A DNA stretch of 64,000 nt from Candidatus Falkowbacteria bacterium (lineage in GTDB: Bacteria > Patescibacteriota > Patescibacteriia > Patescibacteriales > Patescibacteriaceae): positions 7,435 through 71,434 of the forward strand of contig JAPLWA010000005.1 of the NCBI GenBank assembly GCA_026396835.1. Direction: 5' to 3'. Of the stretch, positions 21,825 through 51,964 are shown piece by piece. Positions within the stretch are counted from its first letter, which is position 1, and each line of letters begins with the position of its first letter. The notes beneath the pieces are model-generated. The model did not search any database. It was not told the origin of the DNA and saw only the letters and a list, made by a program, of their open reading frames with translations. The position numbers and the translations under genes are program-made.

Positions 21825-22778
21825 ATGCCTAAAGCTCCCCTAAAAAAGTCTCCGCTCGACCAAGCAATTATTGATTTTTTAGAGTACCTAGAAGTCGATC
21901 GCGGCCTAGCTATGCTAACTCTAAGAAATTATGATTTTTTCTTAAAACGCTTTGCCGCTTTTGCTCGTGAGCGCGGCGTTCTAAAACCTGAGAACATCAG
22001 TAAAATTTTAGTACATCAATTTAGACTTTACCTTAATCGCCTACCTTCACGCGGACCGGACAACATAAAAAAGAATACACAAAATTATCATTTAATTGCT
22101 TTGCGCACATTTTTGAAATACTTAATTAAGAATGATGTTAAAACCTTAGAGCCAGAAAAAATTGAATTAGCTAAACAAATGCCGCGCCAAGTTGATTTTC
22201 TCGAAGGTTCTGATTTAGAAAAAATATTAGAAGCTCCTTTGCATGACAAAAAGGACAGTCTCGCCGGCTTACGCGATAAAGCTTTATTAGAAACTTTATT
22301 TTCAACTGGCTTGCGTGTTAGTGAATTATCAAAATTAAAAATTGAAGAAATAAATTTAGCCAAACCAGAATTTACGGTCCGCGGAAAAGGTTCAAAAGTT
22401 CGTTTAGTTTTTCTATCAGAAAATTCTCGGCATTGGATTAAGAAATATTTAGCCGAGCGCACTGATCTAAATCCTTATTTGTTTATTAGTCATGGCAAAA
22501 TAAATATAATTGAAACAGAAAGTTGTTTAACGCCGCGCTCGATCGAAAGATTAGTAGCGCGCTATGCTCGTCTATCAGGTATCATGAAAAAGGTAACGCC
22601 ACATACAATGCGCCATAGCTATGCCACAGATTTACTGATGAACGGCGCCGATATTAGATCGGTCCAAGCCATGCTAGGTCATGCTTCAATCACCACCACT
22701 CAAGTTTATACTCACATAACAGATCAACAGTTGCGCGATGTTTATCAAGCATTTCATGGTAAGAAGAGAAGAAAGTGA
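21825..22778 (+). CDS. tyrosine recombinase, XerC/XerD family
   Basis: N-terminal SAM-like domain. The catalytic region contains GLRVSEL, HTMRHSYATDLL and LGHASITTTQVYTH (R..HxxR..Y). Confidence 0.85.
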   Translation: MPKAPLKKSPLDQAIIDFLEYLEVDRGLAMLTLRNYDFFLKRFAAFARERGVLKPENISKILVHQFRLYLNRLPSRGPDNIKKNTQNYHLIALRTFLKYLIKNDVKTLEPEKIELAKQMPRQVDFLEGSDLEKILEAPLHDKKDSLAGLRDKALLETLFSTGLRVSELSKLKIEEINLAKPEFTVRGKGSKVRLVFLSENSRHWIKKYLAERTDLNPYLFISHGKINIIETESCLTPRSIERLVARYARLSGIMKKVTPHTMRHSYATDLLMNGADIRSVQAMLGHASITTTQVYTHITDQQLRDVYQAFHGKKRRK

Positions 22779-22878: not shown

Positions 22879-22950
22879 GTCCTCGTAGTTCAATGGATAG
22901 AACAGGAGACTTCTAATCTCTAGATCTAGGTCCGATTCCTAGCGAGGGCA
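22879..22950 (+). tRNA. tRNA-Arg (anticodon TCT at 22912..22914)
   Basis: Hand-folded 72-nt cloverleaf: acceptor GTCCTCG/CGAGGGC (one G-U), anticodon loop CTTCTAA, discriminator A. The T-loop reads TCCGATT, with C at canonical position 55. Confidence 0.85.
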
Positions 22951-22972
22951 CACGAAGATAAGTGAAAAATAT

Positions 22973-23512
22973 ATGACCTGGCTTCTGTATATACTTGTTG
23001 TTATTTTCACTGTTAGTATTATCTTCTTAGCGGTTCAGTTTTTTAACATTCTCTTTCGCGGTCAAGCGCCATTCATTTCAACAAAAAAGCGCATTCTACT
23101 TCAAATCTCAAAAGGAATTAAGATTAAACCTAATGAGGTATTCTATGAGCTAGGGGCTGGTCGAGCCTGCCTTTTGGGTCTTATGTCTAAAGAGCAGCCG
23201 CAAGCTCAATTTGTCGCTTTGGAGTATGCAATTTTACCCTATCTTTTAGCTTGTCTTCGCTATGCTTTTTCAAAAAGCGATATCCGCATTAAGCGACAAA
23301 ACATGTTTTTAGCAAACTTGAACAATGCTAATTATATCTATTGCTATCTTAACAGAGAGATGATGATAAAGCTTGAAAAGAAGTTTACGAATGAATGTAA
23401 ACCTGATACGGTTATTATTAGTTATCAATTTGTGATGCCACATTTTCGTCCATATAAAATAATTACGGCTAGCAAAAGTGAGAAAATTTATTTCTACCGC
23501 CTTGAGCGGTAA
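22973..23512 (+). CDS. small membrane-anchored putative class I SAM-dependent methyltransferase
   Basis: N-terminal TM helix and a motif I-like YELGAGRACLL. Weak call. Confidence 0.45.
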   Translation: MTWLLYILVVIFTVSIIFLAVQFFNILFRGQAPFISTKKRILLQISKGIKIKPNEVFYELGAGRACLLGLMSKEQPQAQFVALEYAILPYLLACLRYAFSKSDIRIKRQNMFLANLNNANYIYCYLNREMMIKLEKKFTNECKPDTVIISYQFVMPHFRPYKIITASKSEKIYFYRLER

Positions 23513-23517
23513 CATAT

Positions 23518-23590
23518 GGTGCCTATAGTTTAATGGTAGAACATCGGGTTGTGGTCCCGTCAGCGAGGGTTCGATTCCCTCTAGGCACCC
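23518..23590 (+). tRNA. tRNA-His (anticodon GTG at 23551..23553)
   Basis: Hand-folded. An encoded G-1 opposite C73 is the tRNA-His hallmark. Anticodon loop TTGTGGT, T-arm GAGGG TTCGATT CCCTC. Confidence 0.85.
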
Positions 23591-24291: not shown

Positions 24292-24296
24292 AAGTC

Positions 24297-25583
24297 TTAA
24301 AGTAAGTTATTTATTATTCTATTAAAATCAATCGTGTCAGGAACTCCCCCGAGAGACCCGAAGCGGTATATTCTTTTAATGTTGTCTCGTTCTTTTACAT
24401 CATAATCCGACACCTTTGATACTATGATATTATCATCTTTTTTTTCTAATATATGAGCTTGATCATTTTGAAGAATATCAAAGGTTTCATGATTGTGTGA
24501 CGAGAAAAATATTTGTGCATTATTTTTGTTAATATCCTTATCTTTAAAGAGATTGAGTAGCGCGATCTCCATGTCTGGATGATAATATTTACTTGTTTCG
24601 TCATATACGACAATACCACCCACTTTTATTATTCTAAGAACCTCACTTATATAAGAAATAAGCTCTCGTGTTCCTGCAGAAAGCTCCATTACACCAAGCT
24701 CTTTATAAAAGTTATTATACTTTGCGTCGTATTTAATACTAAAAGAACCATTAGTAGGATTACTATTAGAATAATTATCACCAATTTTTTCTATATTGAG
24801 TTTCTCGAAGGATGGTTCAAAATATTTAACAACAGAATTAACGGCGTTAATTTTTTCGCCAGCTATTTTTGAATCGCTATTAAGATAGTTAATCGCAAAA
24901 GCCATTAATCCGCTTATATTATTTTGTCCCATTTGAACAGATCGTTTATCAGTAATAAAACAAACCTCAGTCTTTATTTTCTTAAGTCCGGAGACTCCAA
25001 TTTCTTCCTTTAGGTTGCCGAATACAGATATATCAGAGCTATCATCTAAGAGAATAGAAAGAAATGATGATTTTTTAGGCGCCACAATATTTTCAGCTAA
25101 TGACGCTATCTTCCTTTTTATGCTTGCCTCAAATGAAATATTGTGATTTTCTCTCGTAAATACCTTTTTATTATTTTTAAATAAAATTTCTCGAGAAATC
25201 TCTTTGCCTTCATTTGTGATTGAAAATGAATAGCAATACTTATCTTCATCAATTATAAAATCCATCTCCATCTCAATAGGCTTTAATTGCATTGAGATGT
25301 GATAATTGGGTAGAGCTAGTACAATATCCTGTTTTATGCCATTTGGAGCAATCACAAAATCTTGCTGTCTTGTAAACATAACTCTGATTATCGTATCTAT
25401 GAGGTTTAATATTGTGCTTTTCCCTGATGCGTTTGCACCATAAAAACCAGATATAAGAGAGACTCTCTCTTTCCCCGCATTTACATATCCGATTTTTTCT
25501 TTCTCTCCGCCCTCAATAAAACTAACCTCTACAGTATCTTTAACCCCATAAAAATTGCTTGCCTTAATTCTTGTGATTAACAT
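24297..25583 (-). CDS. ABC-type (AAA_15/AAA_21-like) ATPase of OLD/AbiL/PARIS-like systems
   Basis: Start chosen at MLITRIKASNFYG (ATG 25583). Walker A GANASGKST, signature-like LSAGTRELISY, Walker B GGIVVYDE, H-loop FSSHNHE, C-terminal YRFGSLGGVP. Confidence 0.75.
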   Translation of the reverse strand: MLITRIKASNFYGVKDTVEVSFIEGGEKEKIGYVNAGKERVSLISGFYGANASGKSTILNLIDTIIRVMFTRQQDFVIAPNGIKQDIVLALPNYHISMQLKPIEMEMDFIIDEDKYCYSFSITNEGKEISREILFKNNKKVFTRENHNISFEASIKRKIASLAENIVAPKKSSFLSILLDDSSDISVFGNLKEEIGVSGLKKIKTEVCFITDKRSVQMGQNNISGLMAFAINYLNSDSKIAGEKINAVNSVVKYFEPSFEKLNIEKIGDNYSNSNPTNGSFSIKYDAKYNNFYKELGVMELSAGTRELISYISEVLRIIKVGGIVVYDETSKYYHPDMEIALLNLFKDKDINKNNAQIFFSSHNHETFDILQNDQAHILEKKDDNIIVSKVSDYDVKERDNIKRIYRFGSLGGVPDTIDFNRIINNLL

Positions 25584-25765
25584 ATTTTTTATATAAATGA
25601 CATTATTTTGTAATAATATAATATATATTATCACAGATATATTTATAAGTCAAGTATTTTGACAAAAAAGTGTCATTTTCCTATAAGTTCAGTAAAAATA
25701 GTTCTAATTTTTGCTAAAAATCATTGCCATTTTAGAAAGTAGATAGCCCGAGAAAATAATATTAT

Positions 25766-25821
25766 AAGATAAGTTCATCAACGACCCATTTCAAAATTCA
25801 GCTCTTTTCGGGCTGTTTTTT
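25766..25821 (+). repeat. island box-hairpin element, copy 1
   Basis: AAGATAAGTTCATCAACGACCC + spacer + CAGCTCTTTTCGGGCTG + T-run. No plus-strand gene lies upstream of it. Confidence 0.85.
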
Positions 25822-25879
25822 GTTATAAAATTGTTAGACCCTAGTGGGAGTTGAATATAAAAGATATAATAGTATTAAT

Positions 25880-26191
25880 ATGTTTAATTCTAAAAAAGTA
25901 AAAATTATTTTAACCAGTATTTTAATTACCTTAATATTAATTAGTATTTTAATCATTATTAATCTAGATAGACTCAGAATATATCCAGTTGAACCAGCTG
26001 TAAGCCCTGAGGCTCAAAATAAATTTAATGCGTGCTTAGTTGATGTTGCTAGTCGTTATGGGGAGCAAAGACAATTAATAAAGCATGACCCAAAAAATAC
26101 TTATGGATTAGACACCTTATTAAAAGAATTAGATGAACGTGAGAATAAAGCTGAAATAGATTGTTATAAATTTATTTCTCCGTCGTTGTAA
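25880..26191 (+). CDS. small single-pass membrane protein, unknown function
   Basis: The ORF-track ORF starts at GTG 25844. I prefer ATG 25880 (MFNSKKVKIILTSIL...). Confidence 0.4.
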   Translation: MFNSKKVKIILTSILITLILISILIIINLDRLRIYPVEPAVSPEAQNKFNACLVDVASRYGEQRQLIKHDPKNTYGLDTLLKELDERENKAEIDCYKFISPSL

Positions 26192-26307
26192 TAAACTTGT
26201 TTACCAAACAATCCATCAAAATAGTTTTCTCCGTCAAAGACGGACAGGTAACTTTCTTGATTGCTTGCCCTAAAACGTGTAAAAAATTGAGATGCTAAAA
26301 TATAAAT

Positions 26308-26568
26308 ATGAATAAAGAAACTACAATAAAACTACTAGGCTATACAGGAACAATTGTTGCTATTATAATGTTTTTATCTTTAATCGAAATTGCTAGGGCA
26401 AACATGAGTGGTCAGACTCATATTATTATCCAGCCATTGGCTACTATTCTTAATTGTTCGATTTGGTCAACATACGCCATTCTCAATAAAGACAAATTTG
26501 TCTTTATGGCAAATATGCCAGGGGTCTTACTTGGTGTCTTTACTGTTATTACTGCTTTGGTAAAATAG
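26308..26568 (+). CDS. SemiSWEET-like (PQ-loop/MtN3 half-transporter) membrane protein
   Basis: 86 aa with three TM helices. Size and pattern are typical of bacterial SemiSWEETs. Confidence 0.65.
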   Translation: MNKETTIKLLGYTGTIVAIIMFLSLIEIARANMSGQTHIIIQPLATILNCSIWSTYAILNKDKFVFMANMPGVLLGVFTVITALVK

Positions 26569-26620
26569 AATCATTAACTAAGTAATCAATAAAAAGATAA
26601 AAAATAAATACTATTTTAAT

Positions 26621-26938
26621 ATGGAATTCAAGAAATTACAAAATAACGTTGCAAAAGTATTTTTAAATAATTTAAAAAGAGATAACATCAAACTAAGTGA
26701 TGATTATTTAATTTTAAAATTAACGGAAGAGCTTGGTGAATTTGTTCAATCATATCTAATGCATAAAAAAAGATGTAGACCAGAAAAACATGTATCCGAA
26801 AAAGAATCAAAAAGACTAACATCCAAAGAATTAGCCGACGTACTTGGCTTAGTACTGGTTATCTCTAAAAATTTAAAAATCGATGTAGAAGAGGCTTTAG
26901 TCAAAAAATGGATAACTAGAGAGTGGATTAAAAAATAA
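26621..26938 (+). CDS. MazG-like nucleotide pyrophosphohydrolase
   Basis: LTEELGEFVQ ... ELADVLGLVLVIS ... EEAL.KKW, the EExxE/ExxD helix pattern. Confidence 0.65.
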   Translation: MEFKKLQNNVAKVFLNNLKRDNIKLSDDYLILKLTEELGEFVQSYLMHKKRCRPEKHVSEKESKRLTSKELADVLGLVLVISKNLKIDVEEALVKKWITREWIKK

Positions 26939-26948
26939 ATCGAAGTAT

Positions 26949-27012
26949 AAGATAAGTTCATAAACGACCCTTGTGATACAATAAAAACACCTTCTTTTTG
27001 GAGGTGTTTTTT
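26949..27012 (+). repeat. island box-hairpin element, copy 2
   Basis: AAGATAAGTTCATAAACGACCC + spacer + ACACCTTCTTTTTGGAGGTGT + T-run. The stem sequence differs from the other copies. Confidence 0.85.
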
Positions 27013-27059
27013 GTTTGGTGCTATAATTTAACTATAAACTAATTAATATTTTATTTTAT

Positions 27060-27629
27060 ATGGGTAACAATCAATCTACTGAGGCAAGCACCATGCCAGC
27101 AGAACAAGCTAATAATATTCAAGAGCGTGATAAAATTGATTTCTACTTTATAGTTTTCATGATACTTGGAGTTCCTTTTTTAAGCTTTTATTTTGTTTTT
27201 GGATCTCCTATCTTTACTGGTTATTTTTCTGAAATAAGAGACGAAGGATATGGGGCGATACTCCCGGCTATTTTTATGACATTTGTTTTGCCGTATATAA
27301 TAAACATTGTGCTAAATAGCATATTAAGCCTATATGTTTCTACTAAAAAGGGGGTATATATTATAAATTTTATAAGCCTTGTTATTCTTGCTTTTATAGA
27401 ATTTTTTATTTTAAGTAATTATTATCTATCGTCAAGTGGACTTATGAGCTCCGTAAAATATTTTTTAGATACTTTTTTAATGGTGATTTCTTTTTGTCTG
27501 ATGTTGTTGTTATATATTAGATTAAGAAGTGTCCCGAGAAGCGATACTACAAGAAATAAAAAAATACTTACTGGTCTGGTCATCTCTGCATACTTAGCTT
27601 TTTTAGTTTTAATTAGCGGTGCTATATAA
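27060..27629 (+). CDS. polytopic membrane protein, unknown function
   Basis: 189 aa with about 5 hydrophobic helices. Confidence 0.5.
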   Translation: MGNNQSTEASTMPAEQANNIQERDKIDFYFIVFMILGVPFLSFYFVFGSPIFTGYFSEIRDEGYGAILPAIFMTFVLPYIINIVLNSILSLYVSTKKGVYIINFISLVILAFIEFFILSNYYLSSSGLMSSVKYFLDTFLMVISFCLMLLLYIRLRSVPRSDTTRNKKILTGLVISAYLAFLVLISGAI

Positions 27630-27737
27630 TTAGCTTTTAAAAATCTTAACCCATCACATAGTTATAACTTTTTTAATAATTTTTTTAACCATCCCTCCCA
27701 CTACCGCCCCATTTGATACTATATTTATAACCAAACC

Positions 27738-27787
27738 CCAACTTGGACCCAAATACAAAATAGCCCTTTTTGGGCTGTTTTTATTTA
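27738..27787 (+). repeat. island box-hairpin element, degenerate copy
   Basis: CCCAACTTGGACCCAAATACAAAATAGCCCTTTTTGGGCTGTTTTTATTT. Compare copy 6: CATCAACGACCCAAATATAAAATAGCCCTTTCGGGCTG. Confidence 0.6.
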
Positions 27788-27816
27788 TTATCAAAGTTAG
27801 CTATACTTAATAATAT

Positions 27817-28593
27817 ATGAACAACAAAGAAGGTCTGCTAGCTCAAGATCCCAACAACGAAAAGGGCTATTTTGAGCAGGAACTATGGCAAAAGAAAACG
27901 CATTTCTTGGACGTGGTCCGAAAAAGTCTTGAGGCAAACACCGATGATTCTCTTGAAGAGAAAGAAAATCACTTAGAAAAAATCGGTGAAGCATTAGCCT
28001 TGTCCTTAGAAATACACAAGGATCAAGCACCGCGCGAAGACGGTCCATACGTCTTTCATGTTCTGCGCGTCGCCACTCGCTTAGTAGAAGAATTTGGTAT
28101 TACTAATCAAGAAAATATTATTGCCGCTTTGTTGCATGATTCAATTGAAGATCAGTCCGAAGCCTTAGCAAAGCTTTCTCAAGGAGACGGGTCCGTAAAA
28201 AATAAGGCCTTATCATATCTAGAACATACTTTTGGTAAACGTGTTCGCGATATTGTTCTAAAGTTGTGTAATCCTGATATTGATAAATCCCAGCCAAAAC
28301 AGGTTTATCTAGATGACTATGCGCAGCATATTCGTGAAGCGACCGAAGACCTGGCAGTACTATCAATTAAACTTTCTGACTTTATGGATAATGGCTTGAA
28401 TCTAGACTCTATCAAGGATAACAGCAAGCGTCTCTGGTATAGTCAAAAATATTTACCAGTAATGGAAATATTTACTGAGCGACTCAATGAACATCCCTCT
28501 GTTTTCAGTCTTGAAAAAACCAACGAGATTAAAGCTATTTTGGTGGCAGAAGCAGACAAAACAAAAGATTTTATTGCTAGCTTTCTAGACTAA
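27817..28593 (+). CDS. HD-domain protein, RelA/SpoT-type (p)ppGpp-hydrolase-like
   Basis: HVLRVATRLVEEFG....IIAALLHDSIED (the H..HD..ED pattern of HD_4). Confidence 0.65.
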   Translation: MNNKEGLLAQDPNNEKGYFEQELWQKKTHFLDVVRKSLEANTDDSLEEKENHLEKIGEALALSLEIHKDQAPREDGPYVFHVLRVATRLVEEFGITNQENIIAALLHDSIEDQSEALAKLSQGDGSVKNKALSYLEHTFGKRVRDIVLKLCNPDIDKSQPKQVYLDDYAQHIREATEDLAVLSIKLSDFMDNGLNLDSIKDNSKRLWYSQKYLPVMEIFTERLNEHPSVFSLEKTNEIKAILVAEADKTKDFIASFLD

Positions 28594-28603
28594 ATAAAAA
28601 TAT

Positions 28604-28679
28604 AAAATAAGTTCATAAACGACCATTTAAAAATCAGTCCCGTATAGCGCAAGCTTTTACGGGACTATTTTTATTTTTT
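28604..28679 (+). repeat. island box-hairpin element, copy 3
   Basis: AAAATAAGTTCATAAACGACCA + spacer + AGTCCCGTA..TACGGGACT + T-run. The stem sequence differs from the other copies. Confidence 0.85.
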
Positions 28680-28732
28680 ACAAAAAGAGCCACCCGCTAA
28701 AAACCTTGCGGGTGGCTAAATATATTGGAGAT

Positions 28733-29029
28733 CTAAAGGCTTTCGTCATTGCCGTCAAATTCGCTCTTCGCATCTGGATGATTTTTCTTCCATCGGTCGA
28801 TTACAAATTGCGGAATTTTAAGATTTTTAACGACCTTACCGCAAATCGGGCATTTTACAGAAAAATACTCGTGCTTAGCGTGCGTTCCAAAATAATGAAA
28901 CAAATTCACATCAACATCGGAAATTTCAAACTCGGTATCACAATTATCTATCTTAAGAGTTTTATCGCCCGTGCACTTTGCCTTGGATTCCCAAGGTTTT
29001 TCTAAATCTGACTTTTTAACAAGTGTCAT
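28733..29029 (-). CDS. small hypothetical protein with CPICG zinc-ribbon-like motif
   Basis: 98 aa. It has the only strong Shine-Dalgarno sequence I found in the window (TAAGGAGAAGTATT-ATG). Hairpin AGCCACCCGC/GCGGGTGGCT lies downstream. Confidence 0.55.
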   Translation of the reverse strand: MTLVKKSDLEKPWESKAKCTGDKTLKIDNCDTEFEISDVDVNLFHYFGTHAKHEYFSVKCPICGKVVKNLKIPQFVIDRWKKNHPDAKSEFDGNDESL

Positions 29030-29195
29030 AATACTTCTCCTTAGATTATTTTTTTATTTAGTTAATTATTTCTGGCGCCATAACCAAAAACAATTAACCA
29101 AATATTTATTAATGAACGATAGGCTAGAATATCATTTATTTTGATTTTTGTCAATGATATCTCTCGCTATAAGATTAACTCCCAGTATGTCTATT

Positions 29196-29254
29196 GAAAA
29201 GCTCGTCAGCGACCCGCTTTAAAACCAGCCCCTCTTGGGCTGTTTTTATTTTAT
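29196..29254 (+). repeat. island box-hairpin element, copy 4 (most divergent box)
   Basis: GAAAAGCTCGTCAGCGACCC + spacer + CAGCCCCTCTTGGGCTG + T-run. No plus-strand gene lies upstream of it. Confidence 0.75.
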
Positions 29255-29288
29255 TGAACAATAATCATTTATATATTAAGATGACAAT

Positions 29289-29360
29289 GATGTGGTAGCC
29301 AAGTGGTTAAGGCGTTTGTCCGCAAGATAAATATCGTAGGTTCGACTCCTACCCACATCT
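29289..29360 (+). tRNA. tRNA-Cys (anticodon GCA at 29322..29324), atypical anticodon loop
   Basis: Hand-folded 72 nt: acceptor GATGTGG/CCACATC, T-arm GTAGG TTCGACT CCTAC, discriminator T (U73 is the tRNA-Cys identity base). The anticodon loop is CCGCAAG, with C at position 33 (29321). The anticodon stem is weak and AT-rich. Confidence 0.65.
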
Positions 29361-29362
29361 CT

Positions 29363-30313
29363 ATGACAGCACAACAATACATTGAGCAAAGACTAAACGG
29401 GATAAAAGATAAAAAAATAGAGCAAGATGGAAATCTTGTTGATTTTATTTTTACAACCATAATGTCTAAAAAGTTTAGAAAATACAGTGTAAGTCCCGTG
29501 GCTAATGACATAGTCCGTAAAGCAATAGAATTAAGTATTCAAAATAACGAACCAATAAAAATTGCTATTCCCTATGGTTCATATAAATTATGGAGATTAG
29601 AAGAAAGTCCCGAACCTGATTGGGCTGAATTATTTGCCATGATTTATTATGCTTACTGGCTAAAACCCATAACAGATGTCTATGAGCCGGGAGTTTGGTT
29701 TGATTTTTGCGGCGACGATGCAATTTTAGAATTAATGAATAATATTCCTGAAGAAGACACTAAGCAATATAAAAAAGTATTTCGAGATTTAATAGCTTTT
29801 ATACAAAATTATTTGCCTAATAATTTTAAATTTACGTTTAGCCCTGTTGGCGAGCGCTATGACTCGAAACAAGATTTCCTTGACGACCTTAATCAAAAAA
29901 TAGATGAGCTCAAACAGAAAGGTCTACCGCCTTTAACTGAAAGACAAATCGAGATGATAGATTTCAATGTAAAATTAAAACCAGGGGAAAAAATTAATTA
30001 TCAAGACAATCAACTTTTACACGATGCCTACATGGCGGTAAGCAAAAGAAGACCTCGCCACAAACAAGCTGATAAAATAGTTATATGTTGTACTCCTTTT
30101 GGCGATAGAACTAGCTTACCAATGGGAACCACTAAAACTTCGGTTGTTAAATTTCAAACAGGTGCCGGCGTACTTCATAAAGAAAAGGATGCTTTTATGG
30201 AATATATTTATTCGCCCTCACAATTGCAAAACAAAAAATACATCTTTGAGCCTATTAGTATTGTAGGTCTGTCTGGTAAAAATTTTAAAACCATACGAAT
30301 AATTAGCAATTAA
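29363..30313 (+). CDS. hypothetical protein (316 aa)
   Basis: Start moved from the ORF-track 29303 to ATG 29363 (MTAQQYIEQ) because 29303..29360 overlaps the tRNA. No motif recognised. Confidence 0.55.
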   Translation: MTAQQYIEQRLNGIKDKKIEQDGNLVDFIFTTIMSKKFRKYSVSPVANDIVRKAIELSIQNNEPIKIAIPYGSYKLWRLEESPEPDWAELFAMIYYAYWLKPITDVYEPGVWFDFCGDDAILELMNNIPEEDTKQYKKVFRDLIAFIQNYLPNNFKFTFSPVGERYDSKQDFLDDLNQKIDELKQKGLPPLTERQIEMIDFNVKLKPGEKINYQDNQLLHDAYMAVSKRRPRHKQADKIVICCTPFGDRTSLPMGTTKTSVVKFQTGAGVLHKEKDAFMEYIYSPSQLQNKKYIFEPISIVGLSGKNFKTIRIISN

Positions 30314-30316
30314 CAC

Positions 30317-31072
30317 GTGAATAATTTAGAACTAGAATTTAATAGCATAGTGAGTGAGGCCGAAAATGATTCTAACGTTTTAGGAATGATTTTAGTTGGC
30401 TCGCGTGGTAAAGGATTTGAAAATGAGCACTCTGATTTTGACGCCATAATAATTTTAAGCGACAAAGCGAGCGAAGAAATTATGCAACAGTATAAAAATA
30501 AAAAATCCGTTGACATGGATTTAAATATTTTCACGCTGACTGATTTTAAAAATTACGCTACCTGGGATAGTTCTATGGCTTGGGATAGATATACTTTTGC
30601 TCATGTAAAAATATTGATAAACAAAATAGAAAATCTAGAAGAGCTTATTAAAGATAAGGGCTATATACCAAGTGATAAACAAAAACAATTTATTGAATGG
30701 TGGATTGATGGTTATATTAACGGCGTGTTTCGTTCTATTAAAGCCTTGCGCAATAAAAACGAATTCGGCGCCCGTCTCGAAGCTACTAATTCAATCCTTG
30801 ATCTATTAACTTTGGTTTTTGGAATTAACGGTCGACATCGACCTTTTCTTGGTTATACTGAAAAAGAATTACTAAAATATCCTTTAGAAAAACTACCCTG
30901 GGAACATAATGATTTTATTAAATTGATTTCTATTGTTTTAGAAACGAGCGATTTAAAAACTCAACAAAAACTTTTGCAAGACACTGAAAATTGGTGTATT
31001 GAATTAGGCTATGGTCATATCATTGATGCCTGGGAAGGCAAAGATAAATGGGCTATCAACTTAACCTTATAA
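30317..31072 (+). CDS. nucleotidyltransferase-domain protein (pol-beta superfamily, ANT-like)
   Basis: ILVGSRGKGFENEHSDFDAIIIL (the GS...DxD NTase motif). GTG start. Confidence 0.6.
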   Translation: MNNLELEFNSIVSEAENDSNVLGMILVGSRGKGFENEHSDFDAIIILSDKASEEIMQQYKNKKSVDMDLNIFTLTDFKNYATWDSSMAWDRYTFAHVKILINKIENLEELIKDKGYIPSDKQKQFIEWWIDGYINGVFRSIKALRNKNEFGARLEATNSILDLLTLVFGINGRHRPFLGYTEKELLKYPLEKLPWEHNDFIKLISIVLETSDLKTQQKLLQDTENWCIELGYGHIIDAWEGKDKWAINLTL

Positions 31073-31075
31073 ATT

Positions 31076-31405
31076 ATGGAAGCTAAATACGATTTTTATT
31101 GTGAAGAAGTTTTATCAAATAAAACAAAAGTAGAAGTAGTTTTTGAATCTGAGAATATTTTAGCCTTTAATCATACAAAGCCCTCTTATAAAACTCACAT
31201 CGTTATTATTCCTAAGAAGCATATTATAGATTTAATATCCTTAGCTGATGATGAAATCAGCATAGTAACCGAGATCTTAAAAACAGCTCGTGATATTTCT
31301 AAAAGTTTAGATAAAGATCAAGGAATTAAATTAATTACTAACCTAGGGAAATTTCAAGACACGCCGCATCTTCATTTTCATTTAATTGTTGGTGATAAAT
31401 TATAA
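31076..31405 (+). CDS. HIT (histidine triad) family protein
   Basis: AFNHTKPSYKTHIVIIPKKH ... TPHLHFHLIVG (HxHxHxx motif). Confidence 0.8.
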   Translation: MEAKYDFYCEEVLSNKTKVEVVFESENILAFNHTKPSYKTHIVIIPKKHIIDLISLADDEISIVTEILKTARDISKSLDKDQGIKLITNLGKFQDTPHLHFHLIVGDKL

Positions 31406-31410
31406 AACAT

Positions 31411-31740
31411 ATGACAAACGAACAAATTATTTTGCCTGAAATACCACAAGAACATGTTCCAACACCAGAAGAAGTTAATTCTGTATTCAAAGAATTAATC
31501 AAAAAAGAGTACACAGAAATTCGTAAACTCGAGGATGAAAAAGGCCTATATATATTAGAAGTTACTGTACCCGGTGAATTAGAGGGCGAACTTCTTGAAT
31601 ATGCTTACATGAGAAAAGGCAGACACCCAGAAGGCGAAAGTTCGACCGATGAAATTCATGTTACCTATTATAAAAATAATATTCCCTACGGCGGAACTTC
31701 AGCAGCAAGATGTATCGAAGGGCAATGGAAAATATTATAA
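31411..31740 (+). CDS. hypothetical protein (109 aa)
   Basis: Tightly packed in the same operon. No motif recognised. Confidence 0.5.
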   Translation: MTNEQIILPEIPQEHVPTPEEVNSVFKELIKKEYTEIRKLEDEKGLYILEVTVPGELEGELLEYAYMRKGRHPEGESSTDEIHVTYYKNNIPYGGTSAARCIEGQWKIL

Positions 31741-31753
31741 CTTATAAATAAGC

Positions 31754-32008
31754 ATGAAAAAATTCATCTACCCCTTCTTATTCGCCATTGTCGGAGCTTT
31801 AATTTTTGCTTCAATTGGCTTTTTTAGATTTGTTAGTTTTGGCGCAAACGATTGTGATATGCCAGGAAAAAGCTGCAACTGCTTTTGCTGCAATTCATTT
31901 GGTTTGCGCGGCTACGAAGCCTGCGGTAATTATGGCTTGCTGCTTGGAGCAGGCGCAGGAATATTATTCGGTTTAATTATCTATTTAATAGTAAAACATA
32001 AAAATTAA
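31754..32008 (+). CDS. small Cys-rich two-helix membrane protein
   Basis: 84 aa. CDMPGKSCNCFCCNSFGLRGYEAC lies between two TM helices. Confidence 0.5.
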   Translation: MKKFIYPFLFAIVGALIFASIGFFRFVSFGANDCDMPGKSCNCFCCNSFGLRGYEACGNYGLLLGAGAGILFGLIIYLIVKHKN

Positions 32009-32096
32009 CTTAAGTTAGTTTGTATTGACATGCCTTAGCTTCGAGCAAAAGTTGGGTGTGAGTATTTGTGATATAATTAAATTGAAATAATCACAC

Positions 32097-33515
32097 ATGG
32101 ACAAGCATCTAGAACACAAAAACAAAACAAAACGAATATCTAGTTTGATTAAAAAATATTCCCTAGCTACTAAGCAAGGGCAGCTTAATTTTTATCATAA
32201 AAGCACTAATTCTACTCGACCTAACAACAAACAAGATCAGTTAATTGATATTTCTGATTTGAATGAAATTATTGAGATTAATGTTAAAGAAAAATATGTA
32301 CTAGTTGAACCAAATGTTTCCATGGAGAAACTAGTAGCAGCTACTGTTAAATATAATTTAATACCTCCAGTTGTTATGGAGTTCCCAAAAATTACTTGTG
32401 GTGGCGCTGTCAATGGCGCAAGTCTAGAAAGCTCATCTTTTAAATACGGGCAGCTCAGTGACACTTGCGAGGAATATGAAATTATATTAGGCAATGGGAA
32501 AATAATACGCGCTTCAAAAAAAATAAACTCTGATTTATTCTACGGCATTTCCGGATCTTATGGCACCCTGGGCTTTATTTCTCTGCTAAAAATTAAACTG
32601 CTTAAAGCTAAAAAATACGTTAAACTTAACTACTACCCAACAGGATCATTTAAGGAAACGATTGAGTTAATTAAGACCAAAGCTACTGAAAATAAAAATG
32701 ACTACATAGATGCTATTATCTACGATAAGTCTCATGGGGTGGTTATGACCGGAAAAAATACTGACTCAGAAAATCTACCCATCAAATCTTATTCTAAAAT
32801 ATCTGAACCCTGGTTTCACAGAAGAGTAAAATTGATTACCAGAAGAAAGCAACCGCAAGAGGAGCTTATACCATTAGCTGATTATTGCTTTCGCTACGAT
32901 CGCGGTGCGTATTGGATGGGAGAATTTGCCTTCCCGCTGCTTGGCGTTCCTGACAATAAGTTAACTAGATTTATTTTTAATGATTATGCTAAAACTCATA
33001 AATTATTTGAAGCCCTGCAAACATTAAATGTCTCACAGAATTATTTTGTTCAAGATATATACCTACCATTTAATAAAACACTAAACAGTTTAAAATATAA
33101 CGAACAAAATGAAAAAATTTATCCTGTCTGGTTATGCCCAATAAAAGCAACTGATAAAGAGCAAAAATTATCACCTCATTATATTAAAGACAAATTACTA
33201 ATCGATATTGGTATATACGGACAAACAAATAAATATCTACTAGACCCAATTAAATCAAACAGAAAATTAGAAGCTTTTGCAAAAAGAAATGGTGGAAGAA
33301 AAATGTTATATGCTCATGCTTATTACACGGAAAATGAATTCTGGTCCATCTATAATAAGGACTGGTATAACAAACTAAGAATCAAATATCATGCCCAGAA
33401 TGTCTTTCCTGATGTTTGGAAAAAAACTCACGTTTCAGGACATATCAAAGGAACAAGGTGGTGTGGATTTTTCAAATATTTCTTTATTAATCCAATAAAA
33501 AGATTAATACAGTAA
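32097..33515 (+). CDS. FAD-binding oxidoreductase, DHCR24/DWF1 (delta-24 sterol reductase)-like
   Basis: Collinear recalled family motifs: GASLESSSFKYG, NSDLFY, GTLGF, AKKYVKL, PWF, YPVWLCP, IDIGIYG, MLYAHAYYTENEFW, FPDVWKK. Confidence 0.65.
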   Translation: MDKHLEHKNKTKRISSLIKKYSLATKQGQLNFYHKSTNSTRPNNKQDQLIDISDLNEIIEINVKEKYVLVEPNVSMEKLVAATVKYNLIPPVVMEFPKITCGGAVNGASLESSSFKYGQLSDTCEEYEIILGNGKIIRASKKINSDLFYGISGSYGTLGFISLLKIKLLKAKKYVKLNYYPTGSFKETIELIKTKATENKNDYIDAIIYDKSHGVVMTGKNTDSENLPIKSYSKISEPWFHRRVKLITRRKQPQEELIPLADYCFRYDRGAYWMGEFAFPLLGVPDNKLTRFIFNDYAKTHKLFEALQTLNVSQNYFVQDIYLPFNKTLNSLKYNEQNEKIYPVWLCPIKATDKEQKLSPHYIKDKLLIDIGIYGQTNKYLLDPIKSNRKLEAFAKRNGGRKMLYAHAYYTENEFWSIYNKDWYNKLRIKYHAQNVFPDVWKKTHVSGHIKGTRWCGFFKYFFINPIKRLIQ

Positions 33516-33532
33516 GTATAATTCCGGTTTAC

Positions 33533-33594
33533 AAGATAAGCTCATCGGCGACCTATTTATAATTCAGCCCTTTTTGGGCTGTTTTTTATTTTTT
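33533..33594 (+). repeat. island box-hairpin element, copy 5
   Basis: AAGATAAGCTCATCGGCGACC + spacer + CAGCCCTTTTTGGGCTG + T-run. Confidence 0.85.
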
Positions 33595-33618
33595 AGAAAA
33601 AGGCTATAATTACTTTAT

Positions 33619-35163
33619 ATGAAAAATCAGGAAATAATTTCAAATATCAACAAAAAAGACTCTGCCCTTGGTGATATTTTAGTAGAAGAGAATGAAGAAA
33701 GCATAGAAAACCTAGCCATAGGAAAAAGACTAGAGGAGCTTTTAGACGAATATGACCCAGAGGAATACTATGATAGAGCGACTTTTACTAGCTCACAATT
33801 AGACTTAAAAAATTATCTGAAAGAGCATAAAAACTCACACCAGTTTATAGCAAATAAACTTATCGAGTTATGGGCGGGCGGTACTGTGGCTGAACATTTA
33901 GAAGATTTTAACAATCTCAATCACATCGAGCTTGCCAATAGATTGATTGATGAAGGAGATGGAGAATATGTCATAGATAATTTTGAAAAATTCCAAAATT
34001 TAGATCAAACTGTCATTGATAAACTCATTGAGAAAGGTCACGATTGGGAGCTAGCTTACTCTCTAGAAAAATTTCCAACAATCGATCAAGAGTCGCTAAT
34101 AGCTAGGTTAATAGCTAGGCAGCATTGGAGTCCTATTATCAGTAATTGGGAAAAATTCAAAGATATTAATAAAGAAAAAATACTTGATGAATTAATGCAA
34201 AATGGAGCAGCTGAAGAAATATTAGAAAATATAAAAAAATTTCCAAATGTTGATCATGCCATCTTGGCAAATAAACTAATTGATGAGAACAAAGAAGGCT
34301 TAGTTGTTAATAAAATTGAAAAACTTCAAAAATTAAATCAAGCAGTAGCCGACAAGCTCGTCGCCAAAGGTAAAGGAGAATCTGTTTTCGACAACATAGA
34401 TAGATTTGAAAACTTAAACAAAGAAACAAAGGACAAAGAACATATAAAGCTTCGAGAAATAAAACAACTGGAGAATCCTATAAAAGAGATTATAAAGCAA
34501 ATGGATCTAGAAAATACTAACTACGACGCTATTATTGGCGATGACGCCTCAGGAAGAATACCAGCATTAATTTTTAATGAAATAATCAGTAAAATAAACA
34601 AGGATAAAAAAATCGAAAAACCAAAATTGCTTTTCATTGCTGGGCAGTTTGCCGGGACTTCATACAATGACGCAGATCCTAATGCTTTTAGAAAAATTCT
34701 ATATGACACCAATAAACATATTTCAAAAAACATTAAAGATAAAAAAAGAGCACTAATCGTTACCGATACAATAAATACCGGGAATAGTCTGTCGGCTATG
34801 ACAAAAGGACTTCAAGGCAACAAGATAGAATACGACATAGCTTCTATATCTTTTCTGGGAGAGTATAAACAAAACTTAGAAGAAAAAATAAAGGAAACAG
34901 AAAAAAAACTAGGGGCTAAAATTTTTTCCAATCTTACCACGGTTACACCTAGAATTTACCGTCACTACAGTATTGCTGGTGTAAGAAAAGAAAACGCTAG
35001 CAAATACTCAGCTGACATTATGTCAAAAAGAGCGGATGACTTTGCCCCCGCCAGTGTTGCCAGGGCGCGCAAAGATATTCATATCTTGTCTAAACAATTA
35101 CTTAGCTGGTACAATAATAAGAATAGCGACGAAGAAATAAAGACAAAAAATAGCAAGAAATAA
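33619..35163 (+). CDS. protein with N-terminal ~33-aa helical tandem repeats and a C-terminal type I phosphoribosyltransferase (PRTase) domain
   Basis: Repeats of the form LANKLIDEGxGExVxxNxEKFQNLDQxV, about 6 copies. The C-terminus has DAIIGDDASGRIPAL and the PRPP-loop-like ALIVTDTINTGNSL. Confidence 0.6.
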   Translation: MKNQEIISNINKKDSALGDILVEENEESIENLAIGKRLEELLDEYDPEEYYDRATFTSSQLDLKNYLKEHKNSHQFIANKLIELWAGGTVAEHLEDFNNLNHIELANRLIDEGDGEYVIDNFEKFQNLDQTVIDKLIEKGHDWELAYSLEKFPTIDQESLIARLIARQHWSPIISNWEKFKDINKEKILDELMQNGAAEEILENIKKFPNVDHAILANKLIDENKEGLVVNKIEKLQKLNQAVADKLVAKGKGESVFDNIDRFENLNKETKDKEHIKLREIKQLENPIKEIIKQMDLENTNYDAIIGDDASGRIPALIFNEIISKINKDKKIEKPKLLFIAGQFAGTSYNDADPNAFRKILYDTNKHISKNIKDKKRALIVTDTINTGNSLSAMTKGLQGNKIEYDIASISFLGEYKQNLEEKIKETEKKLGAKIFSNLTTVTPRIYRHYSIAGVRKENASKYSADIMSKRADDFAPASVARARKDIHILSKQLLSWYNNKNSDEEIKTKNSKK

Positions 35164-35210
35164 GTTCATCAACGACCCAAATATAAAATAGCCCTTTCGG
35201 GCTGTTTTTT
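35157..35210 (+). repeat. island box-hairpin element, copy 6 (overlaps the stop codon of the upstream gene)
   Basis: GAAATAAGTTCATCAACGACCC + spacer + TAGCCCTTTCGGGCTG + T-run. Confidence 0.85.
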
Positions 35211-37513: not shown

Positions 37514-37615
37514 TTTTAAAATACCTTAGCAAAAAAATCTAATAAAACAGCCCTAAATTGGGGTTATTTTTTTTGGTGATATAATTTAGCTAGATAAACA
37601 TTAACATCTATCTTT

Positions 37616-45387: not shown

Positions 45388-45481
45388 GCTCAAAAAAGCA
45401 GTCCTAAAAATCGGGGCTGTTTTTTAATACTAAAAAACTGATGTATAATTAAGAAGTAAAATAACACAAACTAAGCCCATT

Positions 45482-51939: not shown

Positions 51940-51964
51940 AAAATGTTAATAAGTTAAAACAAAA

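Follow-up and report, generated by a model that had tools for sequence, protein, structure and literature searches.

Mosaic lambdoid phages carry short conserved boundary sequences that flank unrelated ORFs, and phage ‘morons’ are self-contained units (promoter, ORF, and terminator) inserted between other genes. Palindromes or terminal inverted repeats characterize the pneumococcal BOX (boxA-B-C), the Neisseria Correia element, and REP/BIME, whose copies face both ways and are scattered genome-wide by the tens to hundreds. Small RNAs derived from 3'-UTRs and lambda nut-type sites (boxA, spacer, and boxB hairpin) are conserved among orthologues of one gene or operon leader. The tycheposon islands of Prochlorococcus, flexible regions next to tRNA genes, arise by tandem integration of integrase-bearing elements, and their repeats consist of partial tRNA genes (bioRxiv 10.1101/2020.12.28.424599). 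Integron arrays and CALIN consist of small unrelated ORFs with an attC site that abuts or overlaps each stop codon, and integrons were not found in the genome size class of about 1 Mb (PMC4889954).

Here we describe a 26-nt sequence, denoted the box, that recurs in accessory islands of Candidatus Falkowbacteria, a CPR (candidate phyla radiation) bacterium with a genome of about 1 Mb; the window that was analyzed comprises 64,000 nucleotides. The box is an intergenic module restricted to one subclade of Candidatus Falkowbacteria, where it lies in hypervariable islands, and it corresponds to no repeat class or RNA family described so far. The first-pass annotation had likewise recognized no described class, and a scan of Rfam with the element returned no match.

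As in integron arrays, the ORFs at this locus are small and unrelated, the sites abut or overlap stop codons and face one way whatever the orientation of the genes, and related genomes differ in their number of sites; as in attC, the hairpin varies in sequence while its pairing is kept. Whereas attC has a palindromic R/L structure, conservation here falls on a box that is asymmetric and unpaired. Furthermore, IntI is lacking, the units often have their own promoter and terminator, and seven sites have no hairpin, in addition to the difference in host. Like BOX, Correia, and REP elements, the element is a short, lineage-specific intergenic repeat of modular build, located just downstream of genes, that includes a terminator or serves as one and of which intact and decayed copies coexist; unlike them, the box lacks symmetry, always faces one way, and is limited to accessory islands. 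The self-contained units, and a conserved gene-boundary sequence beside unrelated ORFs, recall morons and lambdoid mosaics, but the context is chromosomal, with no phage genes and no match to the box in 2.9 million viral contigs, and conservation is much higher in the box than around it. Tycheposon islands share with this locus a tRNA-adjacent hotspot, cargo that differs in every relative, and partitioning by direct repeats; however, the units here are only 0.25–4.3 kb and have no integrase. A tRNA fragment was ruled out as the source of the repeat, as no partial tRNA copies were found in the island and the box is not tRNA-derived. Finally, a single-stranded box, short spacer, and stem-loop on one strand are also seen in 3'-UTR-derived small RNAs and nut-type sites, whereas here the box is repeated behind many unrelated genes and the hairpin is simply a terminator whose sequence varies.

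The box and its associated modules

The first-pass annotation had reported seven copies of a 22-nt box, all in the same orientation. Screening of the window with that consensus, allowing up to three mismatches, yielded five matches (25766, 26949, 28604, 33533, and 35157); 0.02 are expected in shuffled sequence, and 0 of 100 shuffles reached five. All five are on the plus strand, which upholds the common orientation. A further copy, at 29196, is degenerate (two mismatches to a 17-nt core) and shares 76–83% identity over 52–67 nt with other copies; the orthologous position in a related genome (L050 16336) holds an intact box. At 27738 there is no box at all, and the label ‘degenerate’ was therefore wrong for this copy: the conserved sequence 5' of its hairpin (27726–27750) is TATAACCAAACCCCAACTTGGACCC, which belongs to a second repeat family with two further copies in L050 and also present in L061. 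The module at this position is 80–88% identical to L050 11836–11976, L050 15634–15728, and L061 13011–13099.

The conserved unit proved to be longer than first described, spanning 26 nt (TATAARATAAGTTCATCAACGACCCA) from a start 3 nt farther upstream. It is asymmetric, unpaired in predicted folds, and built around a nearly invariant palindromic core (TTATAA). Neither dyad symmetry within the box nor its complement elsewhere in the window was found. Copies are confined to 25.7–35.2 kb, together with one eroded copy at 37.5 kb, and the other 54 kb of the window are without the box. The claim that box differences are almost all transitions is only roughly true: window copies show about six transitions and two transversions, and in the alignment of 24 copies across genomes positions 13, 17, and 18 often show transversions.

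As originally proposed, each of the six window copies comprises a box, an A-rich spacer of 10–15 nt, a G+C hairpin, and a T-run (Table 1). The hairpin and T-run are a canonical intrinsic terminator, often bidirectional, and the box is unpaired in the window folds. Spacer and hairpin differ from copy to copy, unlike the box, which occurs in runs of 28–30 nt that are identical between genomes with only 72–77% identity in syntenic core DNA (copy 1 is identical to L042 14395–14422 at 28 of 28 nt). This contrast indicates that the box is under its own constraint. Divergent stems, previously assigned to copies 2 and 3, belong to copies 2 and 4; copy 3 has the common AGCCC/GGGCT stem. At least seven other plus-strand terminators in the window, some with this same stem, have no box, which contradicts a generic terminator motif.

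A long form of the module (box, terminator, and box 2; ~100 nt) lies upstream of a TATAAT promoter at window copy 1. It is 91% identical to three L024 modules whose flanking ORFs are unrelated, and it also occurs in L006 and L050. In minimum-energy and centroid folds of the long form (window copy 1, L024 1750, and L006 1736), the box and box 2 pair through TCAAC..CCCA and TGGG.GTTGA, respectively; pairing of the box with downstream sequence is limited to this form, and thus to a minority of copies. Box 2 is present in just 6 of 26 copies and is also found alone after tRNA-His and in reverse orientation.

Table 1. Features of the box array and its surroundings. Positions refer to the window unless a genome is named; copies are numbered as in the first-pass annotation.
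Feature	Position	Strand	Remarks
XerC/D-type tyrosine recombinase	21825..22778	+	~3 kb left of array; context only
tRNA-Arg, inserted 179-aa ORF, tRNA-His	22879..23590	+	Left border of hypervariable island in all relatives
Sigma-70-like hexamers at orphan copies	L050 16336 (TTGTCA-17-TACAAT); 25731-25760		
Box copy 1	25763..25788	+	Perfect consensus, TATAAGATAAGTTCATCAACGACCCA; no upstream plus-strand ORF; right of reversed gene pair 23710-25634
Terminator of copy 1	25799..25821	+	CAGCTC-loop-GGGCTG and T6; predicted by folding
Box 2	25842..25853	+	TAGTGGGAGTTG; part of long-form module
Box copy 2	26946..26971	+	Begins 7 nt past stop codon of MazG-like ORF (26621-26938)
Terminator of copy 2	26983..27017	+	Different stem, ACACCTTC/GGAGGTGT; predicted by folding
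Second module type (former copy 3)	27726..27790	+	TATAACCAAACCCCAACTTGGACCC, spacer, AGCCC/GGGCT terminator; preceded by reversed box 2
Box copy 4	28601..28626	+	Begins 7 nt past stop codon of HD-domain ORF (27817-28593)
Terminator of copy 4	28628..28673	+	Long, different stem; -22.2 kcal/mol, z-score -5.7
Box copy 5	29193..29218	+	Degenerate, ATTGAAAAGCTCGTCAGCGACCCGCT; right of reversed ORF 28733-29029 and its promoter module
Terminator of copy 5	29226..29248	+	Followed by tRNA-Cys (29289-29361) and six-ORF block
Box copy 6	33530..33555	+	Begins 14 nt past stop codon of FAD-binding ORF (32097-33515)
Terminator of copy 6	33565..33587	+	Predicted by folding
Box copy 7	35154..35179	+	TAA within box is stop codon of phosphoribosyltransferase-like ORF (33619-35163)
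Terminator of copy 7	35189..35210	+	Predicted by folding
Eroded box and intact terminator	37514..37565	+	About half of box positions kept; orthologous to intact L061 box (16044)

Gene context and variation among genomes

Seven Candidatus Falkowbacteria genomes (that of the window and six others) contain 26 box copies. The stop codon of a co-oriented ORF abuts the box in 23 of these, lying as much as 10 nt within it or up to 36 nt before it; the 23 ORFs are unrelated, and eight of them stop at a TAA supplied by the box. A terminator follows in 19 copies, 10–15 nt away in all but one. The other seven boxes lie between packed ORFs, with the next ATG only 5–24 nt on, and have no hairpin; the combination of box, hairpin, and T-tract is therefore not obligatory.

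Within an island, every copy is on one strand, including where the enclosed genes are reversed, and no reversed box was found at the 3' end of reversed genes in these islands. Five reversed units have a plus-oriented module on their right (window 23710–25634 and 28733–29029; L050 11403–11711, 13357–15468, and 15806–16189). Thus, the box follows the orientation of the array and not that of the enclosed gene, in keeping with the first-pass annotation. The window copies that follow no plus-strand gene are those at 25766 and 29196, not copies 1 and 4 as previously stated; copy 4 directly follows the HD gene. The description of gene content between copies stands: the cargo comprises small, functionally unrelated accessory genes, many units have their own promoter, and G+C content is 29–35% in cargo DNA versus 35–41% in the flanks. 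The ORFs set between these homologous modules are unrelated, and the modules share the polarity of the array.

Box matches were limited to about three species among 185,579 genomes; in four close relatives, no copy lies within 10 kb of the corresponding locus in either direction. The islands of close relatives without the box are equally variable, and boxes are therefore not needed for variability. A single standard box was identified in each of L059 and L061; that of L061 is intact and its window counterpart is eroded, with the terminator, promoter, and downstream gene conserved. Block-wise gain or loss was recovered in one instance, in which the promoter and HD gene, together with box 4 and its terminator, were gained or kept as one block in the window relative to L050. 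However, the breakpoints of this block, the only orthologous insertion/deletion mapped, are just past two T-tracts and not inside a box. Arrays are identical, with no cassette gained or lost, among eight independent assemblies of the L042 species. No cassette was found to recur in a different context with its breakpoints marked by boxes. The sole gene common to two arrays (window 30317–31072 and L006 6286–7041) has no adjoining box in either genome.

Apart from a Xer homolog near the window array, no integrase, transposase, or HUH enzyme was found within the arrays or next to them. This homolog is of a housekeeping type, with synteny kept in relatives with and without boxes. It scores 241 and 235 bits as XerD/XerC and 124 bits, in two pieces, on the integron-integrase model (cut-off of 265 bits).

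Possible functions of the box

We tentatively favor the interpretation that the box is a strand-polar cassette-end module recognized as DNA, and that the terminator insulates the units. A module of fixed polarity would close each accessory gene unit on its right, and sequence and folding strongly suggest that its terminator insulates neighboring units. The box would then be a separate, asymmetric, sequence-specific recognition site joined to the 3' end of the left-hand ORF, which a trans-encoded enzyme, or recombination between conserved modules, would use for ORF capture, exchange, and loss. Its role would be analogous to that of integron attC or mosaic-phage boundary sequences, and it would be a member of neither class. 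We infer that the box may be recognized on DNA and promote exchange. The cassette idea of the first-pass annotation thus survives in part: homologous intergenic modules enclose unrelated ORFs both in the window and in the six other genomes, but no structural variant, dyad, or attC-like fold was found, and no recombinase apart from the Xer homolog. The lack of a dyad is unusual for a double-stranded recombinase site, and 23 of 26 copies are placed exactly as a 3'-UTR element would be; both observations weigh against a cassette end.

The main rival, which we consider possible but rather unlikely, is that the box acts as an unstructured 3'-UTR or intercistronic RNA segment through which a trans-acting protein or antisense RNA controls processing, stability, termination, or translation, with the three orphan copies being small RNAs of about 45–60 nt from their own promoters. 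The position of most copies behind co-oriented ORFs is consistent with this, as is a box that is always single-stranded in predicted folds and lies 10–15 nt 5' of the terminator in 18 of 19 copies, a layout that matches the seed and terminator of 3'-UTR-derived small RNAs. Gene, box, and terminator are also gained or lost together, and the seven terminator-less copies sit between ORFs shortly before the next ATG. Two of the three orphans have sigma-70-like hexamers with a predicted start at the first A of AAGATAAG, although promoter-like matches are no commoner than in shuffled sequence. An RNA signal is more difficult to reconcile with the lack of reversed boxes on reversed genes, the array polarity kept by orphans, the confinement of the box to islands, and its erosion while terminator and neighboring genes remain intact. 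Near-identity over 26 nt is long for a protein-binding RNA site, and neither a complementary sequence elsewhere in the window nor an Rfam match points to such a role. A selfish miniature repeat (cf. MITE, pneumococcal BOX, and Neisseria Correia) is improbable. Its full element would be the ~100-nt long form, with imperfect inverted repeats as ends, and the short forms would be 5' fragments tolerated after stop codons as suppliers of terminators. Such an origin would fit the box/box 2 pairing, the sharp 5' end of the family at TTATAA, the presence of identical ‘master’ copies alongside eroded ones, and the restriction to one lineage. Yet random insertion would not yield 26 of 26 uniformly oriented copies, box 2 is scarce and also occurs solo, one change at a paired position (L050 13219) is not compensatory, seven solo boxes lie between tightly packed ORFs, and no transposase or clear target-site duplication was found.

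It is very unlikely that the box is a promoter, with TATAAG/TATAAA as the -10 element and the rest as a conserved leader of the downstream gene, or alternatively an antisense promoter on the minus strand (TTGGGT-17-TATAAT). Although the TTATAA core is nearly invariant, the next ATG is close in seven copies, and the minus strand has an exact TATAAT in 13 of 24 copies, 17 nt from (T/A)TGGGT, transcripts from 19 of 26 copies would run into a terminator within 10–15 nt, and separate TGnTATAAT or TATAAT promoters lie beyond those terminators. Moreover, no -35-like element is conserved upstream of TATAA, the proposed minus-strand -35 is not conserved (positions 25–27), and a promoter would not need the 17 conserved spacer positions. 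A degenerate integron, whether a CALIN (an attC cluster without integrase) or an array served by the nearby Xer-like recombinase as IntI, appears highly improbable. The small unrelated cassettes, the one-way sites abutting stop codons, and the tyrosine recombinase gene ~3 kb from the array are reminiscent of integrons, and two trinucleotides, AAC within the box and GTT behind many T-tracts, bring attC R boxes to mind. However, the recombinase scores as XerD/XerC, far below the integron-integrase cut-off, and is kept in relatives without boxes; many units have promoters of their own, and integrons are lacking in very small genomes (PMC4889954). The box is unpaired in four of five window copies folded at full length, and thus there are no R''/R' or L''/L' pairs; the element appears not to be an attC, as it has neither a dyad nor R/L boxes and IntI is missing. 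Scarcely credible is a genome-wide motif, either generic to terminators or a signal of the DNA-uptake type. Uptake sequences of Neisseria and Haemophilus are often next to terminators, as the box is, but the box is missing from the rest of the window and its other terminators, from the same locus in the four close relatives, and from nearly all genomes screened, and it occurs in one orientation only.

A cassette-end module thus remains our tentative preference. The element may offer a view of how bacteria this small exchange or regulate their accessory genes.

The box and its terminator

The conserved unit, here called the box, is 26 nt long (T-A-t-A-A-R-A-T-A-A-R-t-n-C-A-t-c-a-A-c-G-A-C-C-c-a), as derived from an alignment of 24 copies from six genomes in which nine positions are invariant. 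The first-pass annotation had listed seven copies in the window. When up to three mismatches to the consensus were allowed, copies 1, 2, 4, 6 and 7 were recovered, all on the plus strand, against a shuffled expectation of 0.02. Copy 5 also belongs to the family, albeit in degenerate form, whereas no box was found at copy 3, where the terminator is preceded by TATAACCAAACCCCAACTTGGACCC, part of a second module. The earlier statement that copies 2 and 3 have differing hairpin stems holds for copy 2 but not for copy 3, which has the common stem; the other differing stem is that of copy 4. Similarly, copy 1 indeed follows no plus-strand gene, but the other such copy is copy 5 and not copy 4.

Runs of 28–30 nt that contain the box are identical between genomes whose syntenic core DNA is only 72–77% identical, and the flanks of the box are not alignable. 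The spacer and hairpin vary among copies. The sequence of the box is thus under constraint that does not depend on the terminator. One site in the window retains about half of the box positions and is orthologous to an intact box in the related locus L061; the terminator, promoter and downstream gene are conserved at this eroded site. Two other plus-strand terminators in the window follow short box-like starts, TTAAATAAGCTCA and TTAATAAGTTAA, which may be truncated relics or mere tandem stop-codon context.

Within each island, the variable accessory-gene region to the right of tRNA-His, all box copies lie on one strand (26 copies), and those of the window fall within 12 kb. A co-oriented ORF precedes 23 of the 26, with its stop codon ending anywhere from 10 nt inside the box to 36 nt upstream of it, and the box supplies the TAA stop codon of eight ORFs. 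A hairpin and T-tract follow an A-rich spacer in 19 copies, with a box-terminator spacing of 10–15 nt in all but the box at 4373 of L006, where an extra hairpin intervenes. In the other seven, the next ATG lies 5–24 nt after GACC and there is no terminator. Intrinsic terminators comprise a G+C-rich stem-loop followed directly by a T-tract downstream of a gene, and the hairpin and T-run are, by prediction, a textbook intrinsic (Rho-independent) terminator. A scan with a terminator-type consensus detected the hairpins of copies 1, 2, 3, 5 and 6, and folding yielded energies of -11 to -22 kcal/mol and z-scores of -2.1 to -5.7; hairpins were judged from individual folds, the consensus structure of the aligned hairpins being uninformative (poor alignment). 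At least seven other plus-strand terminators in the window lack a box, some with the same AGCCC/GGGCT stem.

The box itself is unpaired in predicted folds around the terminators and, in single-strand DNA folds of both strands, in copies 2, 4, 6 and 7 of the window; short pairing between box and box 2 was seen in the long form only. This long form (~100 nt; six copies) comprises box, terminator and box 2 (TAGTGGGAGTTG). The window and three L024 sites share it at 91% identity, yet the ORFs that it flanks are unrelated. Box 2, TAGTGGGAG(T)TG, is found after terminators and ahead of TATAAT promoters, at a spacing unfit for a -35 element. It directly follows the tRNA-His terminator in L050 and is reversed in the module at copy 3.

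That second module consists of reversed box 2 (CCCACTACC), TATAACCAAACCCCAACTTGGACCC, a spacer and a terminator, and is 80–88% identical between genomes. It equals the main box in length and has the same TATAA...GACCC ends, and may therefore be a divergent sister family. A further shared element, found ahead of three small ORFs that are unrelated to one another, is a conserved minus-strand promoter (TTGACA-17-TATTYT) with a ~100-nt 5' leader. A 10-bp hairpin (TTGGTTAATT...AATTAACYAA) forms part of this leader, which in the window also contains a Shine-Dalgarno sequence. Judged from sequence, it may be a cis-regulatory leader common to swapped ORFs. The small reversed ORFs beside orphan boxes (those with no co-oriented ORF upstream) were considered as a shared regulator and rejected, as the three proteins are not homologous (23–26% identity).

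Features of the window and of comparison loci from related genomes
Feature	Locus	Position	Remark
Box copies 1, 2, 4, 6, 7	Window	25766, 26949, 28604, 33533, 35157	Six copies in total with copy 5
Box copy 5	Window	29196	Degenerate
Copy 3 of first-pass annotation	Window	27738	Terminator, no box
Box copies	L024		8, within 11 kb
Box copies	L006		3
Box copies	L042		4; same species as L001
Box copies	L050		3; same contig as L011
Box copies	L059		1; same species as L022
Box copies	L061		1
Identical run	L006 = L042	4369-4398 = 14393-14422
Identical run	Window = L042	25761-25788 = 14395-14422
Eroded box	Window	37514-37548
Box-like starts with terminator	Window	45370-45397, 51940-51957	Plus strand
Half box	Window	22955-22963	AAGATAAGT
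Box 2	Window	25842-25853
Box 2	L024		Three sites
Box 2	L006	~1790
Box 2	L050	~11265, ~13290, ~15735
Second module	Window	27677-27790
Second module	L050	11836-11976, 15615-15729
Second module	L061	13000-13144
Minus-strand promoter and leader	Window	29030-29158
Minus-strand promoter and leader	L050	16190-16322, 11712-11859
XerC/D-like recombinase gene	Window	21825-22778
Methyltransferase-like ORF	Window	22952-23518	179 aa
MFS transporter	L042	11025-12310
Reversed gene pair	Window	23710-25634	Minus strand; module on right is copy 1
HD gene	Window	27817-28593
Reversed unit	Window	28733-29029	Module on right is copy 5
Hexamer before ATG	Window	25866-25884, 27803-27819, 33605-33621
Box-free integrative element	L035	~11.3-18.5 kb

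Genomic setting and distribution

The window is bacterial chromosome of ~35% G+C, with genes that include those for GyrA, PNPase, Der, ribonucleotide reductase and P-type ATPases, and its left part is syntenic with Ca. Falkowbacteria UBA2355 (L001). The XerC/D-like recombinase that it encodes is identical to a protein assigned at NCBI to a Candidatus Falkowbacteria metagenome-assembled genome. The repeat-bearing stretch (29–35% G+C) lies directly to the right of the recombinase gene, tRNA-Arg and tRNA-His. Genes are mostly on the minus strand left of ~22 kb and mostly on the plus strand to the right, and cumulative GC skew has its minimum at 24–26 kb. The gene-strand switch and skew minimum make the region at ~21–26 kb origin-like; gyrA is 15 kb away, and dnaA is absent within the 64-kb window.

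The tRNA-Arg and tRNA-His genes are also neighbours in L022, L033, L035, L040 and L050. Between them are inserted a methyltransferase-like ORF in the window and an MFS transporter in L042, both of which begin 9–21 nt past tRNA-Arg, and a half box sits on the junction of tRNA-Arg and the inserted ORF in the window. The reversed gene pair between tRNA-His and copy 1 encodes an AAA_21 protein (AbiEii-like ATPase domain, 445 aa) and an uncharacterised 193-aa protein, and looks like a defence-type insertion. Leaderless or near-leaderless mRNAs are suggested for several genes of the island, in which a TATAAT-like hexamer stands only 8–10 nt ahead of the ATG and a Shine-Dalgarno sequence is missing; unlike these genes, the reversed ORF at 29029 is preceded by AAGGAG.

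A scan of one genome for each of 185,579 species returned 11 matches to the box, of which three (L001 from Falkowbacteria, L006 and L011) were genuine, defined as having shared flanks, a terminator and further copies nearby. Scanning metagenomes brought in L024, L022 and duplicates. Viral contigs, scanned three times, yielded chance matches in coding DNA only, and a viral or plasmid-like origin of the box was rejected on this basis. These exact-match scans were able to detect near-consensus boxes only, and recombinase neighbourhoods of relatives were then retrieved for box counting, giving a total of 26 copies in seven genomes. L006 and L011 were deposited as 'uncultured Gammaproteobacteria', yet they have synteny or homology, tRNA genes and the box in common with Falkowbacteria, as well as, in L011, the Xer homologue, and are thus probably mislabelled bins. 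The comparison loci are all metagenome assemblies, in which repeats of 26–115 nt can mislead assemblers, but the L042 arrangement was recovered eight times.

Four closer relatives (L033, L035–37, L040 and L052) encode recombinases 80–89% identical to that of the window and lack the box over the 10 kb on each side of the locus. The tRNA-adjacent interval is equally variable in these box-free relatives, indicating that the box is restricted to one lineage and is not needed for island variation. In L035–L037, a relative whose own recombinase is 86% identical to that of the window, this hotspot is occupied by a box-free integrative element that encodes a SIR2-TPR protein and two phage-type integrases and has HTH_17 excisionase-like genes. 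As far as searches of Rfam, a viral collection and the literature show, the repeat family is real and previously undescribed.

Candidate roles of the box

The safest statement is that the repeat is a standardised module that bounds accessory gene units on their right and comprises a sequence-specific 26-nt box, usually with an ordinary terminator. Beyond this, we tentatively read the box as a cassette end that acts at the DNA level, a reading that we place somewhat short of an even chance. The box keeps its array orientation where genes are reversed: no reversed gene carries a reversed box, and five reversed units (two in the window and three in L050) have a plus-oriented module on their right. 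In addition, homologous modules enclose unrelated ORFs. Compared with the window, L050 lacks, at the orthologous place, a block that comprises a promoter, the HD gene, box 4 and terminator 4; the breakpoints lie just past two T-tracts. At the last L042 box, the spacer and the left half of a terminator of the L050 type remain, after which a different ORF begins. Some findings speak against active cassette shuffling: the L042 species has the same boxes in the same order in eight independent assemblies, the sole gene common to two arrays lacks an adjoining box in either genome, and HD homologues elsewhere have no box. Travel of the box with the HD gene family was likewise rejected, as homologues of ~50% identity in two other genomes are without it. 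No recombinase or transposase was found in the L006 or L024 arrays.

Integron integrases are tyrosine recombinases with an extra domain of ~35 residues. The window's only recombinase scores 241 bits as XerD and 235 bits as XerC, and its match to the integron-integrase model TIGR02249 is split in two and reaches 124 bits (cut-off 265). The attC site is an imperfect palindrome with paired R''/R' and L''/L' boxes, unpaired central spacers and extrahelical bases (PMC4889954). Here, the only pairing of the box in single-strand DNA folds is a short one with box 2, in the long form, and dyad symmetry of the box is no higher than in shuffles (score of 2 versus a shuffle mean of 2.8; E. coli dif control, 6). 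Integron cassettes differ block by block among strains, with junctions at the sites; in the loci compared, one insertion/deletion (HD gene, box and terminator) has its breakpoints after T-tracts, and the eight assemblies of one species agree. An integron or CALIN is highly improbable. Sites of the dif/IMEX type (~28 bp) have two inverted arms and a 6–8 bp spacer and lie at the replication terminus, a GC-skew maximum; the box has no dyad and the local cumulative skew is an origin-like minimum, and this identity was rejected. Attachment repeats of integrative islands are copies of the 3' part of the adjoining tRNA gene, and those of tycheposon islands are tRNA-derived (bioRxiv 10.1101/2020.12.28.424599). 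No partial copies of tRNA-His, tRNA-Arg or tRNA-Cys were found in any island, and the box is therefore not such a repeat; it has only ACCCA in common with the tRNA-His 3' end, and the lack of a drawable T-arm also led us to reject a tRNA or tmRNA 3' fragment. Likeness to IHF, H-NS, ECF-sigma or LexA-type sites, as we take it, extends in each case to part of the motif only.

A 3'-UTR or intercistronic signal acting in RNA is possible, although on the unlikely side: the box follows stop codons at a fixed spacing to the terminator, is single-stranded and occurs between cistrons, and sigma-70-like hexamers in two of three orphan copies would put the start of transcription in the box, on the first A of AAGATAAG. 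However, shuffled sequence contains such hexamers at least as often. The box has no match in Rfam 15, where only tRNAs reached the gathering score and an E-value search gave no overlap with the box; the nearest results are at chance level and on hairpins (e.g., sbrA on copy 3, with 27 bits where the cut-off is 45). Pairing of box and terminator as an antiterminator was rejected, since GACCC/GGGCT is possible but not with the stems of copies 2, 4 and L050 16336. Promoter activity is very unlikely: the box contains a -10-like TATAAG, but no conserved -35-like sequence lies upstream, 19 of 26 copies face a terminator, and promoter-like matches equal the shuffle expectation. MITE, BOX and Correia-type repeats have terminal inverted repeats and target-site duplications and are dispersed through genomes in both orientations. 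Box and box 2 are imperfectly complementary in the six long-form copies (9 of 12 positions by hand count, paired in folds), and this complementarity is missing in the other 20; the only double change (L050 13219) yields C·C, so that compensatory change was rejected. No consistent target-site duplication was seen around copies, and the single orientation per island of all 26, with the window copies so closely clustered, makes a selfish modular repeat rather improbable. DNA uptake sequences occur at high density genome-wide, in core genes and on both strands, whereas the box is missing from the 54 kb of non-island DNA in the window and, in four relatives, from the 10 kb on each side of the locus; a generic terminator or uptake motif can be set aside almost entirely. 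The idea that a minus-strand ORF ends in the box (...WVVDELIL*) was also rejected, given that variation is not concentrated at third codon positions and that stop codons lie just upstream in several copies.

Possible implications for accessory-gene acquisition in CPR bacteria

The CPR (Patescibacteria) have tiny genomes with few recognisable mobile elements, and to our knowledge their acquisition and regulation of accessory genes are poorly understood. A more specific and distinctly speculative proposal is that a non-integron system of cassette capture and exchange operates in CPR bacteria, in which a trans-acting enzyme would use the asymmetric 26-bp box, with or without the terminator hairpin. 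This enzyme could even be the single Xer-type recombinase beside the island. By such a system, ~1-Mb genomes otherwise without known mobile-element machinery would assemble accessory genes into strand-polar arrays.

If the box were only a decaying selfish repeat, it would be a minor curiosity. Yet it is up to 100% identical among genomes that are ~75% identical elsewhere, has a fixed polarity and sits at the ends of unrelated accessory genes. Such a constrained, polar tag on unrelated genes suggests one of two roles: it would serve gene exchange as a handle, or it would be a signal by which horizontally acquired genes share post-transcriptional control. Either role would be a new piece of CPR biology, and the box sequence would offer a simple marker by which to find flexible islands in these metagenome-assembled genomes.
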